Shown one piece after another: positions 7,445 through 22,213 of a DNA stretch of 64,000 nt. The stretch's first letter is position 1, and each line of letters opens with the position of its first letter. This stretch comes from a phage, in sequence record PX436236.1, one strand, 5' to 3'. A program made the position numbers and the translations under genes. The notes below the pieces were generated by a model. It did no database searches. It saw only the letters and a program-made list of their open reading frames with translations, and had not been told where the DNA came from.

Positions 7445-7612
7445 CTAAAGTAGTAATTGGGTTTCGTTCAGCTGTTCTTCAGTGTTTTCCGTAACAGGCA
7501 GGCTTTGAACGTAATTATAGCATGAGCCCGGATGAACCGGACCTTTTTCTGTTTCAACAACCAATGCAGCATCGATTGGAGTTTTACAGACAACGCAAAT
7601 CTTATCTGACAT
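7445..7612 (-). CDS. UvsY.-2-like small Cys-containing protein
   Basis: 55 aa ORF below the track cutoff: MSDKICVVCKTPIDAALVVETEKGPVHPGSCYNY...; RBS AAGGAG upstream; T4 uvsY.-2 position. Confidence 0.5.
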   Translation of the reverse strand: MSDKICVVCKTPIDAALVVETEKGPVHPGSCYNYVQSLPVTENTEEQLNETQLLL

Positions 7613-15443: not shown

Positions 15444-15450
15444 CAAAAAA

Positions 15451-15468
15451 GGAGAGCATATGCTCTCC
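15451..15468. terminator. Bidirectional terminator (perfect 18-nt palindrome)
   Basis: GGAGAGCATATGCTCTCC flanked by an A6 run and T-rich sequence, between convergent gene 54 (+) and a small minus-strand ORF. Confidence 0.7.
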
Positions 15469-15477
15469 TTTAGGGGT

Positions 15478-15768
15478 TTATTTACGGAACGAAATGAAAC
15501 CTGCTGTGGTCATTAGTGGTTGCTTTTTAACAAACACCGTAACCGAAATAGGAGCTTCGGATTCGAGTTGTCCTGTCACTACACCGTTAAAAATGTTTTC
15601 GGTTTGTTCTGGATAAGAAAAATTCTCAACAGGTCGGATATCAAACTGTTTGTCTTCACCGAAAACTCGACGTAATTCATTACCCACTGCACTGTCAAAC
15701 TCTTCAGAAGCAGGGATAACGTTTTCAACTACCAGTTCTTGACCATTAAAACGGAATGCAGATTTCAT
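15478..15768 (-). CDS. Hypothetical early protein downstream of alt (alt.-1 position)
   Basis: 96 aa; own early-type promoter and RBS GAGGAGAACATT upstream. Confidence 0.55.
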   Translation of the reverse strand: MKSAFRFNGQELVVENVIPASEEFDSAVGNELRRVFGEDKQFDIRPVENFSYPEQTENIFNGVVTGQLESEAPISVTVFVKKQPLMTTAGFISFRK

Positions 15769-15796: not shown

Positions 15797-15826
15797 ATAG
15801 TACCACATCCTTGTGGTGTTGTAAAC
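15797..15826 (-). promoter_or_regulatory. Early sigma70-type promoter (GTTTAC-N18-TACTAT)
   Basis: Minus-strand -35-like GTTTAC and -10-like TACTAT about 25 nt upstream of the 96-aa ORF start. Confidence 0.55.
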
Positions 15827-17949
15827 TACATTTTGAATTTATTTGATAAAGAAGAGATATCCAAAGACGCTGCAAGGATTTCCATAGCCTCGTTGCTTTC
15901 AGAAACAGATTCATTAACCAAGAATTGACTGAACCCATCCATCAGGCGAACTTCACCAGTTTCCATCAAATGGTCACCATCGTAAACAGATTCGCTGAGC
16001 TCTGAAGGAGGCGTTACGGTAGCTTCCATAAGGTATTTGTGAGATACTCTATCATTCATGGCAAAAGCCGCTACTTTATCAACCTTCAACAATAATCCAC
16101 GCGGAAGGATAATTTCTGCTTCTTCGGCATATTCTGTAAGGTCACCAGGAGCGATAACTTTAACTGCTTCAGCACCTCGAATAACCATACCAATTTCAGC
16201 AATTCTATCTGCAGGACCTTCAGGTGCAATTGGATTACCAAACTCGTCTTCTTCCCATTCTACCTCTTCGTCATCGACTTCACCCACATCAGATGAACTA
16301 CCACTAGCCAATTTAAACAACTCATCAGCGGAGGACAAAGAACCTTCACCACCAACAAAAACGGCTTGGTTGTCGAGGGCCATATAATTTTTACCGAATT
16401 CACCAAAGATGTTAGGCTTTAATGAGGCTGACACAAAGTTCTTAAAGTAAAATGTTTTGTTATCGATATTATGGCGCAGAATTTTGTATGGCAAATCCTG
16501 ACCACGATACAAAATAGTACCCTTAGGAAGTTTAATACCCTTAGTAAATGCTGAGTCTAAATCCTTAATCAATTTAATAGCCGTTGTATTGTTTTCGGAT
16601 TCAGGTTTACCTAAAAGGAATAAGTTCATAGGAGCATATTCAGCCGCGCAATATTCAATAATAGCATTGCTTTCATCTTTGGTTAGGTCCTTAGGTTTAA
16701 TGAGCTCGCCTGAATAAGCATATGCATCACTAATAGAATCGTTAATCAGTTTATAAACGGCTTCCATAGCGAAAGCAATTCGAGATGCTTTCTCTGAAGG
16801 GGAACCCTTAAAACGGGTACTCAGGTTATTAACAATTTTCTTAATAATATCCAGACTATTGGTTGTATTGATTTGCGAAAGGCCACTTAAAAGTCTATCG
16901 ACTTCTGTATTAAAAAATGCCATATTATTAGAGTAAATTTCAAACCCTTGTTTATCTCTATTAGCATAATTTAGTTTAAATTTACTATCAGTCATTAAAG
17001 CGTGTGTGAGAGCAATAGTGTATCTAAAGTTGGCAAGGTCCTCGCTCTTAGATTTAAACTGAGAAGCCTGACGCATTTTAGTAATGGCACCTTTTTTAAA
17101 GTTCTGACTAATCTGTTCAATACCTTCGTTCTCAGGGCCTTCAGCCGTGTGAACCGGTACAGAAGCTTCAAACTCGTTATAAACCTGCAATTCTTTAGGG
17201 GACAAAGTTTCAGGCTCAGCAGTAGAATACTGCGCCGCCGCTGCCATACGACGCGAAATCTTAGTACGAGTAATGACAGCCTTATCAGTACGTTTCTCTT
17301 CAACTTGTGCAATAGATGCCGCTACGGCTTCGACCTTACTTACAGCCTGGCCGGTTTTCTTAGAAACATACACTTCGCCAACTTTAGACTCAACTTTAGT
17401 ATAAAGATCGGCATTAATTTCAGGCATACCCTTGATATCTTCAATATTAGCACCACGACGTACTAAAAGAACGTAGGTATGTTTTCCGCTGAATTGGAAC
17501 ATGTCGTCAACAACTTTAAACTTACCACCGGTACGAGCCATAGCCAAGCGAGCTAATACGCGCTGAACGGTAGGACCTTTACCTTTCATTTTCTTAGTAG
17601 GGAAACGGAACAAAACCGCGTCCATTTTAAGTTTGTTTATTTGTTCATATATGGTATCGAAAATGGTGTTCAGTGTACCGAGTGGATCGGTACCCAAACC
17701 ACCCTTGAGTTCTGCCGGGGCGCCTTTAGCAGATAAACTCATTAGGATGACATGGACGTACTTATCGCCTGGCTTAACCATTTTAATAGCGTCTCCTTGA
17801 GACGCATAAGATACCATACGAGCAACCAGATTATCATTACCTGGTGCTTGGATAGAGAAAATCTGTGGAATACCGGAACCCGGTTTAAGATTTGTTACTG
17901 GATAGTTTTTAGCGGAATCACTATCAAAAACCTCATTTAAATTTTCCAT
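15826..17949 (-). CDS. alt: Alt-like ADP-ribosyltransferase, paralog 1
   Basis: 707 aa; conserved N-terminal about 235 aa shared with the two upstream paralogs; C-terminal R-S-ExE ART motifs (LYRG, FVSASL, EAEIILPRG); N-terminal LNE gp21-protease-like site. Confidence 0.85.
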   Translation of the reverse strand: MENLNEVFDSDSAKNYPVTNLKPGSGIPQIFSIQAPGNDNLVARMVSYASQGDAIKMVKPGDKYVHVILMSLSAKGAPAELKGGLGTDPLGTLNTIFDTIYEQINKLKMDAVLFRFPTKKMKGKGPTVQRVLARLAMARTGGKFKVVDDMFQFSGKHTYVLLVRRGANIEDIKGMPEINADLYTKVESKVGEVYVSKKTGQAVSKVEAVAASIAQVEEKRTDKAVITRTKISRRMAAAAQYSTAEPETLSPKELQVYNEFEASVPVHTAEGPENEGIEQISQNFKKGAITKMRQASQFKSKSEDLANFRYTIALTHALMTDSKFKLNYANRDKQGFEIYSNNMAFFNTEVDRLLSGLSQINTTNSLDIIKKIVNNLSTRFKGSPSEKASRIAFAMEAVYKLINDSISDAYAYSGELIKPKDLTKDESNAIIEYCAAEYAPMNLFLLGKPESENNTTAIKLIKDLDSAFTKGIKLPKGTILYRGQDLPYKILRHNIDNKTFYFKNFVSASLKPNIFGEFGKNYMALDNQAVFVGGEGSLSSADELFKLASGSSSDVGEVDDEEVEWEEDEFGNPIAPEGPADRIAEIGMVIRGAEAVKVIAPGDLTEYAEEAEIILPRGLLLKVDKVAAFAMNDRVSHKYLMEATVTPPSELSESVYDGDHLMETGEVRLMDGFSQFLVNESVSESNEAMEILAASLDISSLSNKFKM

Positions 17950-17952
17950 TAT

Positions 17953-20034
17953 TTACCCTTGGATGAATTTTTCTGGGATGTCATAGAGGTCTATGCATGA
18001 AGCCAAAAGAGGCAGTACATCAAACCGTGTAGATTTAACAAATGAATCAAAAGATACAGGGCTTTCGGAAGTATCGAAGTCATCTTGATATACGACCAAC
18101 TCGCCGGTTTCCATTAGTACGTCACCATCATATACCACAGATTCTTGAAGCTCATCTGTTGTCATAACTTCAGCTTGGATGAGTTTTGTATTACTAGATG
18201 TTGTTCCATCATTATTAGAAGCATCTGTTATTTTATTAACTTTGACCATTAATCCACGTGGTAGAATAACTTCAGCTTCAGTTGCTATTCCGAGATTTCC
18301 TGGATATACGACATTAACTTTATGAGCTCCATCAATCGCCCATCCTATTTGAACTTTAACATAATCAGGATTTTCTTTATATGCTCTTATTTCATTAGGA
18401 TTAATAGTTATTCCTTCTTCATTTTTATCAACTGTCAATTCGTTGCGAACTTCCGGTTCTAAAAGACCAATACCAGCGTGCGTAACACCAAAACGTCCGA
18501 AAATTATAGGAGTTAAAGAAGTAGATACAAAATTTCTAAAATAAAACACTTTATTTTTAACTAGTGCTTCGTATATAGGAGCAGTCATACTCTGTGCACG
18601 ATAAACTGTAATGCCTTCCGGTATACGGTCACCATTTTCAAAAGCTGAATCTAAATTATTTACAGCGGATTCGATATCTTTTTCGCTCATAACCTCATAG
18701 TTCTGAGGATTATAACGTCCTAAAAGAAGATTATTTATGTCTGTATATCCTGAACCACAATATTCTCTGATACCACGCTTTTGTGATGGAGTATATTTAG
18801 AACCTTCACGAGCAATAGTAATATCAACCATAATACCACCACCCACACCAGCAAAACTATACACGCGTTTTTTAATGAACTTAGTCTTGGCTGCTTTCCA
18901 CTTGGCCTCTGTCAATTCGTTCCAAAGGTCATCAGGTTGGCCTTTACGAGTTCTGTTATGGATAGCCAGCCACTCGCCTTTATATTCTTCGAAAATGGTA
19001 TTAATAGCAGAGGCATATTTTTCTAGAGCTTTAACAGATGTCAAAGGTTCGTTTTTTATTGCTGTAAGAATTTTCTCTTTAATTTTCTCTTGGATTTCGC
19101 CAATACCGTGAAGTGGGAACATTTTATAATCGTAATGCAATTCTTCAGCAGTGCCTTCAGCCACTATATTAGCAACCTTATTTTTAGCCGCAGGAGAATT
19201 GTTATTAGTGACCATTTCCTGGGCCTCAGGGATTAATGGAACTGTTGCCGGTTTATTAAAATCTACTGCAGTAGCTTCATATTTCTTAAACAGCTCACTT
19301 TCATTACGATAAGATTCTAACGATTGACTTGCTGCAATAGCACGTCGAGAAATCTTAGTCTTGGTTATAACCATTTTATCAGTGCGACGTTCTTCAACCT
19401 TAGCAATACTACCGGCGATAGCAGTTTCTTTAGTAACCTGCACGCCTTCTTTTTTAGAAATATAAACTTCACCGACATCAGAATCTACCTTAGTATACAA
19501 TTCAGCATTAATTCCAGGCATACCTTTGATATCTTCTATATCAGCTTGTTTACGAACTACCAGGATGTAAGTATGTTTACCGGTAAATTGGTACATAGCC
19601 GGAACTACTTTAAAACGTCCACCTGTTTTCTGTGCTACCAAACGTTGGATAATCCGTTGAACGATAGGGCCTTGACCTTTCATTTTCTTAGTAGGGAAAC
19701 GGAACATCACGGCATCCATACGAAGCTTTTTAACTTGGTCATAAACCACATCAAAAATAGTATTAATCGCATCTACGGGAGTAGGGCCTAGGCCACCTTT
19801 AAGTTCGGCAGGCGAACCTTTAGCTGAAAGGCTCATAAGGATAACGTGGGCATATTTATCACCCATCTTAACCTGTTTAATAGCATCACCTTCAGAAGCA
19901 TAGGATACCATACGTGCTACTAACTGAGACTCCGCGTCTCCAATCTTCCAAATCTGAGGTACTTTAAGTTTTGGGTTCAAGTTCACAACAGGCAGTGTAC
20001 CTTCGGACTCGAACACTTCATTTAATTGGGTCAT
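17953..20034 (-). CDS. alt: Alt-like ADP-ribosyltransferase, paralog 2
   Basis: 693 aa; same N-terminal module; ART motifs VYRA, FVSTSL, EAEVILPRG; divergent middle and C-terminus. Confidence 0.85.
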   Translation of the reverse strand: MTQLNEVFESEGTLPVVNLNPKLKVPQIWKIGDAESQLVARMVSYASEGDAIKQVKMGDKYAHVILMSLSAKGSPAELKGGLGPTPVDAINTIFDVVYDQVKKLRMDAVMFRFPTKKMKGQGPIVQRIIQRLVAQKTGGRFKVVPAMYQFTGKHTYILVVRKQADIEDIKGMPGINAELYTKVDSDVGEVYISKKEGVQVTKETAIAGSIAKVEERRTDKMVITKTKISRRAIAASQSLESYRNESELFKKYEATAVDFNKPATVPLIPEAQEMVTNNNSPAAKNKVANIVAEGTAEELHYDYKMFPLHGIGEIQEKIKEKILTAIKNEPLTSVKALEKYASAINTIFEEYKGEWLAIHNRTRKGQPDDLWNELTEAKWKAAKTKFIKKRVYSFAGVGGGIMVDITIAREGSKYTPSQKRGIREYCGSGYTDINNLLLGRYNPQNYEVMSEKDIESAVNNLDSAFENGDRIPEGITVYRAQSMTAPIYEALVKNKVFYFRNFVSTSLTPIIFGRFGVTHAGIGLLEPEVRNELTVDKNEEGITINPNEIRAYKENPDYVKVQIGWAIDGAHKVNVVYPGNLGIATEAEVILPRGLMVKVNKITDASNNDGTTSSNTKLIQAEVMTTDELQESVVYDGDVLMETGELVVYQDDFDTSESPVSFDSFVKSTRFDVLPLLASCIDLYDIPEKFIQG

Positions 20035-20042
20035 AATCTATC

Positions 20043-21938
20043 CTATTTAAATAAATTTGCTAATTTTTCCATAGAATCTTCATACATAATTCTATCATAA
20101 TTTCCAAACGAGAATCCGGTGCTATATGAATTTTCCTCTGTGATTTGCTCGGTAGCTACAACTTCACATTCCACTAAAACATATTTACCAATTGAACCCA
20201 TAGGTCCCTTGGAAGCACCGTATACTTTATTAATCTTAAGCATAACCCCACGAGGAAGAATTACTTCGGTTTCTGTAGACCAATTAGCCAAGTCACCGGG
20301 CACAATAACCTTAATTTTATCAGCACCTTTAATAATTAACCCTAGCTTAATGGTATCTCTAGCACTTCCGGTCGCACTTTTAATGGTGTCTTCAAGATTA
20401 CTATCTATATCGCTAGAAAGAGCTTCAGGGTCTAAGTTGGATTGAGCATGACCCATTTCACCGAAAATATTAGGAGCCAATGAAGTTGATGCAAAAATAG
20501 GAAGATACATCACCTTATGTTTTATAGAATTCAAAGCCATTTCGGTAGGCATTATCTGAGAACGATACACTATGGTTCCTTTAGGAAGTTTTGTACCATT
20601 TTCAAATGTAGAATCCAACTCACCAATCATTTTTATCATTTCATCGGTGGTATCTGTTTTACCTAGCAAAAAGTTGTTTATATGGTTGTAGCCGCCACGA
20701 GTATACTTTTTGACTGCCTCTTCTTGAGGTTTGGATAAATTAGGATTATCAGATATCTTAAACAATGGTTGGATAGATTTTGTATAAACTGCTACTAAGG
20801 ATTTTATTACTTCCTTGATTTTAGATTCTCTAGCCCAAGTACCTTTAACTGAATCATCTAAAAGGGCCGCAGCGACTAGTCTAAGAATGTCTACATTAGA
20901 TTTACCTGATTTTAAAGCCTCTATGACACTATTAGATTTATCTAAAGAATCTGATGCCTCTAAAGCAAACTTTATATCAGCAATTAGTTTAAGTTTGCGC
21001 TCGTCTACTTCAAATGATGGATTAACACCGTTAAAAATATAATCCAAATATTCTGCCATTTCTTTAGAGGCGTCTTTTAATATTTTATTACTGGCTAAAG
21101 CTATTTGGCTTTCTTTAGAATCTTCAGAAGAATGAACGGAACTAGTAGCAGAATAATCTGCATAAGCTTTTTTGTGCTCTGCCGAAAATTTACTCAATCC
21201 TGTAGGCTCGGCGGTAGAATATAACGCATTTATAGCGGCCCGTTTAGAAACCTTAGTCTTGGTTATAACCATTTTATCAGAACGTGATTTTTCTATTTCG
21301 TCTATAGACTTAGCTATAGCTTCTAATTTGGTAACATCTTCGCCTGTTTTCTTTGAAACATACACATCACCGACTTCAGATTCGACTTTAGTATACAATT
21401 CCGGATTAATATTAGGAATACCGTTTATTGATTCTATATTTTTATTTTTACGATAGATAAAAACATATGAATGTTTGCCTGTATATTGATACAAGGCATC
21501 AAGGACCTTGAATTGCCCACCTGCTCTAGTAGCTATTAATTTGGCTAGAACTCGTTGTACAGCTTTTTCCTGACCTTTCATTTTCTTAGTAGGAAAACGG
21601 AACATAACGGCATCCATACGGAGCTTTTTAACTTGTTCATAAACCGTATCAAATATAGAACGAATAGCGGAAATGGGGTTACTACCTAAACCACCTTTGA
21701 GTTCTGCCGGGGCCCCTTTAGATGATAGGCTCATTAAAATAATATGAACGTATTTGTCACCCGGTTTAACTTGGCGGATTGTATCACCTTCAGAAGTATA
21801 TGAAACCATGCGTGCAACAAGGTTCTCATTACCTTCAGCCTTTATATTCCAAATCTGCGGTACTTTAAGTTTAGGGTTTAAATTGACAGCTGATAAATCT
21901 ATAGCGCCGTCAAATACCTCATTCAATTGTTCGGACAT
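20043..21938 (-). CDS. alt: Alt-like ADP-ribosyltransferase, paralog 3
   Basis: 631 aa; same N-terminal module; ART motifs VYRS, FASTSL, ETEVILPRG; divergent C-terminus. Confidence 0.85.
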   Translation of the reverse strand: MSEQLNEVFDGAIDLSAVNLNPKLKVPQIWNIKAEGNENLVARMVSYTSEGDTIRQVKPGDKYVHIILMSLSSKGAPAELKGGLGSNPISAIRSIFDTVYEQVKKLRMDAVMFRFPTKKMKGQEKAVQRVLAKLIATRAGGQFKVLDALYQYTGKHSYVFIYRKNKNIESINGIPNINPELYTKVESEVGDVYVSKKTGEDVTKLEAIAKSIDEIEKSRSDKMVITKTKVSKRAAINALYSTAEPTGLSKFSAEHKKAYADYSATSSVHSSEDSKESQIALASNKILKDASKEMAEYLDYIFNGVNPSFEVDERKLKLIADIKFALEASDSLDKSNSVIEALKSGKSNVDILRLVAAALLDDSVKGTWARESKIKEVIKSLVAVYTKSIQPLFKISDNPNLSKPQEEAVKKYTRGGYNHINNFLLGKTDTTDEMIKMIGELDSTFENGTKLPKGTIVYRSQIMPTEMALNSIKHKVMYLPIFASTSLAPNIFGEMGHAQSNLDPEALSSDIDSNLEDTIKSATGSARDTIKLGLIIKGADKIKVIVPGDLANWSTETEVILPRGVMLKINKVYGASKGPMGSIGKYVLVECEVVATEQITEENSYSTGFSFGNYDRIMYEDSMEKLANLFK

Positions 21939-21960: not shown

Positions 21961-21968
21961 TATTTATG
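21961..21968 (-). promoter_or_regulatory. Candidate late promoter variant CATAAATA for the alt operon
   Basis: Minus-strand CATAAATA (one mismatch to TATAAATA) about 23 nt upstream of the first alt ATG. Confidence 0.35.
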
Positions 21969-21974
21969 CCAGAA

Positions 21975-21990
21975 AAGGCCCGAAGGCCTT
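21975..21990 (-). terminator. UUCG-loop hairpin after the ligase-distal ORF
   Basis: mRNA-sense AAGGCC-UUCG-GGCCUU overlapping the stop codon, followed by UUUUCUGG. Confidence 0.55.
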
Positions 21991-22213
21991 AAAGTGGTAG
22001 CAACGTACGGTATACTTCAAATTTAGGACCCTTTTCATAGCGGTCGAAATTATCTTTAAAATCAGCGAATGCGATTTCATTTTCAAATTCAAGGACAATT
22101 TGGGACACTGCGGTGGAGACATCGCCACCTTCTTTATATCCAATAACCACGGTTTCTAAATAAGCTTTCATATTATAGTCCAGTTTGAGACCAATCGCCA
22201 AATACATCTTCAA
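21989..22213 (-). CDS. Hypothetical protein
   Basis: 74 aa ORF downstream of ligase; start uncertain (alternative ATG at 22171). Confidence 0.45.
   Translation of the reverse strand: MKMYLAIGLKLDYNMKAYLETVVIGYKEGGDVSTAVSQIVLEFENEIAFADFKDNFDRYEKGPKFEVYRTLLPL

Follow-up and report, generated by a model that had tools for sequence, protein, structure and literature searches.

Why would one phage genome hold three adjacent genes for Alt, the ADP-ribosyltransferase (ART) of T4, and what would three such enzymes do in an infection? The question is raised by a 64,000-nucleotide (nt) stretch of phage DNA (sequence record PX436236.1; this whole stretch is referred to below as the window), whose source is a T4-like Dhakavirus of the JS98/WG01 type. 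A first-pass annotation had described three adjacent, co-oriented genes coding for 707, 693 and 631 amino acids (aa), with scarce intergenic space. This layout was confirmed, with gaps of 3 nt between AltA and AltB and 8 nt between AltB and AltC, and one correction was required: the genes lie on the minus strand, so that they are transcribed in the order AltC, AltB, AltA.

15826–17949, minus strand: AltA, open reading frame (ORF) of 707 aa
17953–20034, minus strand: AltB, ORF of 693 aa
20043–21938, minus strand: AltC, ORF of 631 aa

The locus very probably represents an array of ancient T4 Alt paralogs, assembled from cassettes, whose products would be packaged, trimmed by the gp21 prohead protease and injected, with diverged targets for AltA and AltC. 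The array is real and its first-pass interpretation proved largely right, but it has already been annotated in sister phages and was conceptually anticipated in the literature. New here are the orthology map, the conserved C-terminal processing site, the exchange of cassettes at defined junctions and a first view of the fold of the N-terminal module.

Domain architecture, catalytic motifs and predicted processing sites

All three proteins match the ADPrib_exo_Tox family PF03496, with 63.3 (AltA), 124.5 (AltB) and 51.9 bits (AltC) against a gathering cut-off of 23.4, and phrog_802 ("Alt-like RNA polymerase ADP-ribosyltransferase"), over the full length of AltA and AltB and over residues 1–617 of AltC, whose short tail falls outside. 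The Alt-specific N-terminal domain PF26846 (Tevenvirinae_ADPRT) was assigned through phrog_802, the precomputed PF26846 annotation of relatives and BLAST; an NCBIfam scan gave no matches. BLASTP among the three paralogs returned E-values of 1e-143 to 1e-154. Each protein consists of four parts: an N-terminal alpha/beta module (N-module), a helical middle, a C3/VIP2-like ART core, and a C-terminal tail that starts directly past a conserved (L/I)-x-E motif.

17245–17949, minus strand: AltA N-module, aa 1–235
16540–17229, minus strand: AltA helical middle, aa about 241–470
AltA aa about 471–653: ART domain
16204–16293, minus strand: AltA acidic disordered insertion, aa 553–582
19339–20034, minus strand: AltB N-module, aa 1–232
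AltB about aa 238–405: middle; about aa 406–631: ART domain
21240–21938, minus strand: AltC N-module, aa 1–233
AltC about aa 239–395: helical middle; about aa 396–601: ART domain

The shared N-terminal region of about 235 aa noted in the first pass corresponds to the N-module, which (about aa 1–232) is 62–67% identical between the paralogs. Identity is 11–15% in the middle segment, 35–41% in the ART domain and 19–40% in the tail. The middles had been called essentially unrelated, which applies to the pairs A–B and B–C; AltA and AltC, by contrast, have remotely homologous middle domains (hhalign probability 87.6%, E 3.5e-6, 157 columns). In the hhalign comparison the middle of AltB groups with that of a fourth Alt type, D, described below (100%), and no relation was found between the A/C group and the B/D group.

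The R-S-ExE signature previously reported for these divergent ART domains is complete in each of them. The catalytic residues are R482, S507/S509 and E610/E612 in AltA, R479, S504/S506 and E586/E588 in AltB, and R459, S484/S486 and E556/E558 in AltC, and the E-x-E is directly followed by (I/V)ILPRG in all three. AltA, AltB, AltC and T4 Alt were aligned with 56 representatives of the family, drawn from clusters at 50% identity; in these 60 sequences the catalytic arginine is present in 60/60, the two serines of S-x-S in 60/60 and 59/60, and E-x-E in 60/60. AltA, AltB and AltC are Alt-family ARTs with a shared N-module and diversified, intact-looking catalytic domains. The acidic insertion of AltA, 30 residues with 13 D/E and 1 K/R, is placed between S-x-S and E-x-E; AF2 predicts it as disordered, within a low-confidence stretch (residues 517–581), and it is not present in the consensus of the Tequatrovirus A-type proteins.

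Motifs of the type recognized by gp21 were found at both ends. The N-terminal L-x-E is LNE-6 in AltA and AltB and LNE-7 in AltC, and the earlier proposal of an LNE prohead-protease site near residue 6 agrees with the mapped ITE-6 of T4 Alt. According to mass spectrometry, gp21 cleaves T4 Alt at ITE-6 and LTE-619, the latter with removal of 63 C-terminal residues (PMC5694885). A C-terminal (L/I)-x-E motif occurs at aligned positions of the three paralogs, and that of AltB aligns with LTE-619. Cleavage at these motifs would release the following propeptides.

15829–15990, minus strand: AltA predicted C-propeptide, aa 654–707 (54 residues), after LSE-653
17956–18141, minus strand: AltB predicted C-propeptide, aa 632–693 (62 residues), after LQE-631
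20046–20135, minus strand: AltC predicted C-propeptide, aa 602–631 (30 residues), after ITE-601

Across the 60 aligned sequences the glutamate of the N-terminal site (E6) is conserved in 60/60 and that of the C-terminal site in 58/60, with L, I or V at position −2 in 55/60. AF2 modelled AltA with confident structure that stops exactly at residue 653, the predicted C-terminal cleavage site. All three paralogs retain both gp21-type motifs, and their processing is anticipated by analogy with T4 Alt. The C-terminal site, which the alignment indicates to be conserved in the family, is an addition to the first-pass annotation.

The full AF2 model of AltA (pLDDT 71.7) comprises the N-module (residues 18–228), a linker helix, an all-helical middle (251–470), the ART core (480–645) and a disordered tail. 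The N-module of AltB was modelled as an alpha/beta domain with pLDDT 83 and pTM 0.83. A Foldseek search with this module revealed no solved relative below E 0.026, and its GNAT-like and DNase-I-like matches were weak. A K-x-x-G-x-G loop of the N-module resembles the GNAT pyrophosphate loop (Q/R-x-x-G-x-G/A), with a last position that is not conserved across the family; the resemblance to GNAT is a lead only. It seems very improbable that the N-module is itself a GNAT-like acyltransferase instead of a packaging and delivery module, which would make Alt bifunctional. The N-module was also considered as a degenerate ART serving as a VIP2-style adaptor, and this was rejected, as the N-module model gave no ART matches.

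The ARTs used for comparison were the C3-like and binary-toxin enzymes Vis, C3bot2, VIP2, CPILE-a/BECa, CdtA and C2-I, and the interbacterial Tre1 and Lmo0066. The N-terminal adaptor of a binary toxin is itself an ART fold, the second in the protein, and docks to a pore; the N-module of Alt, by contrast, is not ART-like, and its middle is all-helical. The two tandem ART folds of components of the VIP2, Iota-Ia or CdtA type were not found. Alt further differs from the toxins compared here in its delivery, which proceeds by ejection from the phage head and not through a toxin translocon or a type VI secretion system.

Alt types, their distribution and cassette exchange

AltB is assigned as the orthologue of T4 Alt (NP_049811). 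The two proteins are collinear over their full length (47% identity, E = 0), with 62% identity in the ART domain and 58–59% in the tail, and they have in common the genomic neighbourhood, the layout of a hairpin before a late-promoter-like site, the R-S-ExE triad and aligned gp21 motifs. The N-modules of the window are 42–45% identical to the N-terminus of T4 Alt (BLAST), although the ART domain of AltB reaches the value given above. AltA and AltC show 32–34% identity to T4 Alt overall, with other middle domains and ART domains that are 37–40% identical to that of T4 Alt. The two phages also differ in gene number, with three genes in the window and one plus a remnant in T4.

A second alt gene is widespread in Tequatrovirus and Dhakavirus (RB32 alt.-2, YP_803136; PP01 gp215; JS10 'alt'/alta). 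AltA is assigned as its orthologue and occupies the same slot, directly downstream of the Alt orthologue. In RB32 and PP01 the gene in this slot is complete and codes for 685 aa. The identity of AltA to RB32 alt.-2 is 47% in the middle, 57% in the ART domain and 63% in the tail; its identity to the copies of JS10 and MX01 is 96–99%, segment by segment. By contrast, the N-module of AltA is of the Dhakavirus type, with 45% identity to that of RB32 alt.-2 versus 62–67% to the paralogs of its own genome, and the 30-aa acidic insertion in the ART domain is a further difference from the second Alts. The statement that T4 carries a single alt is misleading. T4 alt.-1 and alt.-2 are 95–96% identical to residues 1–56 and 62–116 of RB32 alt.-2, and T4 therefore lost an AltA-type paralog by deletion, as the T4 GenBank note likewise hints; its congeners RB32 and PP01 keep two full genes.

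AltC is assigned to a rarer third type, whose effector was found at ≥95% identity in 8 phage records only. The nearest other type-C gene, gene 1 of phage 212, is diverged, with an ART domain 70% identical to that of AltC. The fourth type, D, is shared by the Dhakaviruses MX01 and QL01 and phage 212. The composition of the array is C-B-A in the window, B-A in JS10 and B-D-A in MX01 and QL01.

A tblastn search with the N-module identified 1825 places in 1202 phage records, with one to five copies per genome. With the AltA-type effector (middle and ART together) as query, 457 phage records gave a coverage of 80% or more; many of them are Tequatroviruses at about 50% identity. A homology search with the N-module as query in a protein collection gave 3 matches only, and 72 clusters were recovered when 1.84 billion representatives were searched with a profile. 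PF03496 is present in 57 of the 65 scanned cluster representatives, and an N-module joined to non-ART cargo was found hardly anywhere among these 65. Two clusters without PF03496, P0064 and P0066, display degenerate ART motifs by eye, and P0072 and P0073 resemble low-complexity noise. P0068 (541 aa) has an Alt-like N-module in its first ~160–185 residues, no Pfam ART match and no recognisable R-S-E motifs; P0065 (1142 aa) likewise begins with an Alt-like N-module of this length and lacks a Pfam ART match, with an ART-like segment seen by eye that is followed by an extension of ~650 aa. Both proteins are rare and may carry non-canonical cargoes.

Two broken alt genes were encountered. In Escherichia phage 04086 (L004, 11086–13648) the gene at the AltA position is broken into ORFs of 269 and 608 aa, and part of the N-module (about aa 122–197) is repeated, giving five N-module places in the genome; this reflects unequal crossing-over within the array or else an artefact of the assembly. 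In Tequatrovirus-like metagenome contigs (L014, 3183–5248; L015; L016) the A-type alt is interrupted near codon 260 by an 8-nt insertion, which leaves an N-module-only ORF of 273 aa and an effector-only ORF of 415 aa that restarts at Met271. The split, seen in at least 16 contigs from several samples, would naturally uncouple the delivery module from the effector.

The N-modules of the window differ pairwise with a proportion of synonymous differences (pS) of 0.61–0.76 and a nonsynonymous-to-synonymous rate ratio (dN/dS) of 0.14–0.21. Synonymous sites are saturated, and the paralogs are therefore old, their similarity being the result of purifying selection. Recent gene conversion as the source of the N-module similarity in this genome is ruled out by the same saturation. 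The sole 60-nt shared tract that reaches 95% nt identity is formed by codons ~101–120 of AltB and AltC (RMDAVMFRFPTKKMKGQ; 19675–19734 and 21576–21635, minus strand). It holds the near-invariant R112 and G120, and is either a short gene conversion or an unusually constrained stretch. Against PSD9 and JS10, whole-gene dN/dS is 0.03–0.08, which implies that all three are functional genes under strong purifying selection.

These values bear on the view that three genes provide more of the same activity on the same targets, with divergence by neutral drift. The paralogs do have the same arginine-type E-x-E triad and overall architecture, and T4 Alt alone modifies at least 27 host proteins (PMC8120803), a broad specificity that may leave little room for specialisation. 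Redundant dosage is nevertheless unlikely: each effector type persists across genera as a lineage of its own (the A type in 457 records), the A-type ART is 57% identical between Dhakavirus and Tequatrovirus as compared with 35–41% between paralogs within a genome, the middle domains are of unrelated types, strong purifying selection acts on each gene, and the divergence is comparable to that of ModA and ModB (30%), which have different targets.

Across phages, the segments of the proteins group discordantly. N-modules group by phage lineage, whereas middle, ART and tail group by type. Identity between N-modules of paralogs is 62–67% in Dhakavirus, 67–68% in Tequatrovirus and 82% in Thanatos-2, as against 42–46% between Dhakavirus and Tequatrovirus. 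In RB32 alt, codons 1–~230 are 96–100% identical in nt to T4 alt (a T4-type N-module), identity is 40–70% at codons 240–610, and it is back to 85–99% from about codon 611; its ART codons (~400–610) are 82–97% identical in nt, and 95% in aa, to those of AltB of the window. In the D gene of MX01 (681 aa) an A-type N-module (73–98% nt) gives way at codon ~240 to a phage-212-type effector (83–99% nt), and a B-like tail ends the gene. Finally, when AltC of the window (20043–21938) is compared with that of Shigella phage PSD9 (L013, 4518–6413), 60 synonymous differences fall within the N-module and 2 within the other 400 codons, with an N-module dS of 0.55 between two phages that are 97% identical overall. 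N-modules therefore seem to be still undergoing replacement within phage populations.

The junction between N-module and middle is thus a breakpoint in three independent mosaics (RB32 alt, the MX01 D gene, window/PSD9 AltC). The left edge of the cassette is a conserved K-I-S-R-R linker in 3/3 of them, and the right edge lies near the C-terminal cleavage site in two (RB32 alt and the MX01 D gene). Breakpoints at both edges imply that the exchange unit is a middle-plus-ART cassette. The first-pass idea of a conserved delivery module joined to a variable effector is strengthened by these recombination breakpoints, found in other phages at the edge of the module, and the assembly of Alt arrays (one to three or more genes) by cassette exchange is well supported. 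No paper describing Alt cassette exchange was found in the literature searched; one may exist.

A broader proposal, in which a lineage-bound frame receives effectors swapped between genera and among tandem paralogs by recombination at two fixed junctions and thereby supplies each phage with a custom arsenal of one to three or more injected ARTs with different host targets, defence proteins perhaps among them, could well be correct, and is put forward tentatively. The delivery frame would tend to comprise the PF26846 N-module plus, in some cases, the C-terminal propeptide, and the effector cassette the helical middle and the ART core; the distinct targets and the co-packaging are the unproven part. 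The organisation recalls polymorphic toxins and MuF-fused head effectors in its conserved N-module with exchangeable effectors, in its breakpoints at the module boundary and in delivery into a target cell. It differs from polymorphic toxins in that the Alt cassettes belong almost all to the ART superfamily (57/65) and no silent cassette arrays are present; no immunity-like gene was found within the alt array. Unlike the MuF-fused effectors, the Alts have no MuF domain.

Expression signals, proposed delivery and anticipated targets

The gene order is exactly as in T4: DNA ligase (gene 30), alt.1, the alt array, alt.-3, a terminator and the convergent gene 54.

21989–22171, minus strand: alt.1 homologue, 60 aa, ATG at 22171 (Phage_blade, PF24647, E 2.8e-29)
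21977–21988, minus strand: hairpin GGCCTTCGGGCC, 12 nt, UUCG tetraloop, directly 3' of the alt.1 stop codon, followed by a T-run
21961–21968, minus strand: late-promoter-like CATAAATA, 7/8 matches to T4 TATAAATA, 22 nt upstream of the AltC ATG
15825–15797, minus strand: sigma-70/early-like promoter match (TTTACA, 17-nt spacer, TACTAT, upstream TG), between AltA and alt.-3
15478–15768, minus strand: alt.-3 homologue, 96 aa (DUF5498, Pfam PF17602, E 6.7e-34)
15448–15471, minus strand: intrinsic-terminator-like hairpin, 10-bp stem with 5 GC pairs, followed by the T-run TTTTTTGTT

The alt.1 homologue, 67% identical to T4 Alt.1, sits between the DNA ligase gene and the array. The alt.-3 homologue (58% identity to T4 Alt.-3) is the final gene of the co-oriented block, which the terminator-like hairpin past it closes ahead of gene 54. 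The GGCCTTCGGGCC hairpin is identical upstream of T4 alt (L001, ~7541–7552) despite diverged flanks, and a terminator is conserved upstream of alt in 5/6 genomes (Nolan 2006, PMC1524935). At the equivalent spot upstream of alt, past the identical hairpin, the T4 sequence is a canonical TATAAATA. A Shine-Dalgarno sequence, AAGAGGAA, is found between CATAAATA and the AltC ATG, and each downstream alt gene is preceded by its own. The simplest reading would be a single late operon, AltC-AltB-AltA.

In the preferred reading of the locus, an array of packaged and injected paralogs, one late promoter would drive a polycistronic AltC-AltB-AltA message, and all three proteins would enter the scaffolding core of the prohead. 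There, gp21 would remove 6–7 N-terminal and 30–62 C-terminal residues. The mature enzymes would be ejected along with the DNA and would carry out arginine-specific mono-ADP-ribosylation of host proteins in the first minute of infection. AltB would act on RNA polymerase alpha, EF-Tu, MazF and other T4 Alt targets, and AltA and AltC may modify different or partly overlapping host proteins, possibly defence factors. Their action on other targets is speculative; it is argued from the unrelated middle domains, an ART divergence like that of ModA and ModB, and the long retention of each type across genera.

From the same phage group come T4 ModA and ModB, R-S-E mono-ARTs which likewise reprogramme host transcription and translation. 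They differ from the Alts in their size of about 200 aa, in having neither N-module nor cleavage motifs, and in being early genes whose products are not packaged. BLASTP of ModA and ModB against the three Alt proteins found no similarity at E 1e-3, and neither gene is encoded within the window. One or two of the paralogs might nevertheless act late in the producing cell in the manner of Mod, or be packaged without being ejected. Packaging has been demonstrated for T4 Alt alone, and the natural split of A-type genes (at least 16 metagenome contigs) gives a free 415-aa effector. This alternative is quite improbable, as all three proteins retain the N-module and both gp21-type motifs, which are relevant only within the prohead, and the genes follow one late-promoter-like site positioned as for T4 alt.

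The main role of the extra Alts may be to disable proteins of host defence, such as the toxins of toxin-antitoxin systems, with a turnover that tracks the defence repertoire of the hosts. Such a role is a more specific form of the preferred explanation and compatible with it. By ADP-ribosylating MazF, T4 Alt relieves the antiphage effect of this toxin (PMC8120803), the composition of the array varies among near-identical phages (C-B-A, B-D-A, B-A), and the neighbouring alt.-3 can mutate to block a defence system: mutants of T4 Alt.-3 with a C-terminal extension escape the ADP-ribosyltransferase defence CmdTAC (PMC11618068). The effector types are, however, old and conserved instead of hypervariable, with dN/dS of 0.02–0.10 in those ART and middle segments that have enough substitutions. 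We consider this arms-race version possible but rather doubtful.

Several observations weigh against the array of injected, functionally diverged enzymes as a whole. No exact TATAAATA was found near the alt array, and position 1 of the late-promoter-like CATAAATA is a C. For the AltA and AltC types, packaging, processing, activity and targets are proposed on the model of T4 Alt, the only Alt for which head-core incorporation (about 40 copies), ejection and ADP-ribosylation of RNA polymerase alpha at Arg265 are known, and no experimental work on any non-T4-type Alt was found in the literature searched, which also gives no part of Alt as responsible for head targeting. Laboratory alt mutants of T4 are viable, and the AltA-type gene has been lost from T4, which makes the paralogs dispensable, in the laboratory at least. 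Phage 212 has two N-modules, 43% identical, in one genome, which weakens a strict rule of one N-module type per head, or of co-evolution of the N-module with its own head. Tails follow the effector type in several comparisons, so that the C-propeptide is not always part of the lineage-specific frame.

Prior descriptions and significance

Duplications of alt were described in 2006, namely T4 alt.-1/alt.-2, RB49ORF183c, 44RRORF188c and the full-length 44RRORF187c (PMC1524935), and an expanded target range has been argued (2026) for two paralogs in Tequatrovirus (PMC13600099). A literature search on alt of JS98 found nothing. The 6.1-kb alt region of the window is 98.4–98.6% identical to that of the Dhakavirus phages LQ5, ABTNLS3 and WG01, with 98.4% for WG01. 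In WG01, ABTNLS3 and PSD9 the three genes are already annotated as Alt-like RNA polymerase ADP-ribosyltransferase or NAD(+)--arginine ADP-ribosyltransferases, and the LQ5 publication names all three (PMC12895675), the LQ5 GenBank record being without annotation in the collection searched. The triplication is thus not new, and the finding that the first-pass annotation named as a refutation, the same three genes with annotated function in close relatives, has largely been made; what these relatives provide is the annotation, and not an experimental characterisation of the paralogs.

Among phage enzymes that enter the host together with the DNA, Alt is the textbook case, but the T4 protein is the only one studied, and T4 has lost its second copy. 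The A type is present in about 457 of roughly 1200 Alt-bearing phage records. If the AltA and AltC types hit different host proteins, most T-even phages would inject a multi-enzyme ADP-ribosylation toolkit, and the T4 model would understate the complexity of the first minute of infection. For loading T4-like heads with foreign cargo, the fixed recombination junctions offer natural fusion points.

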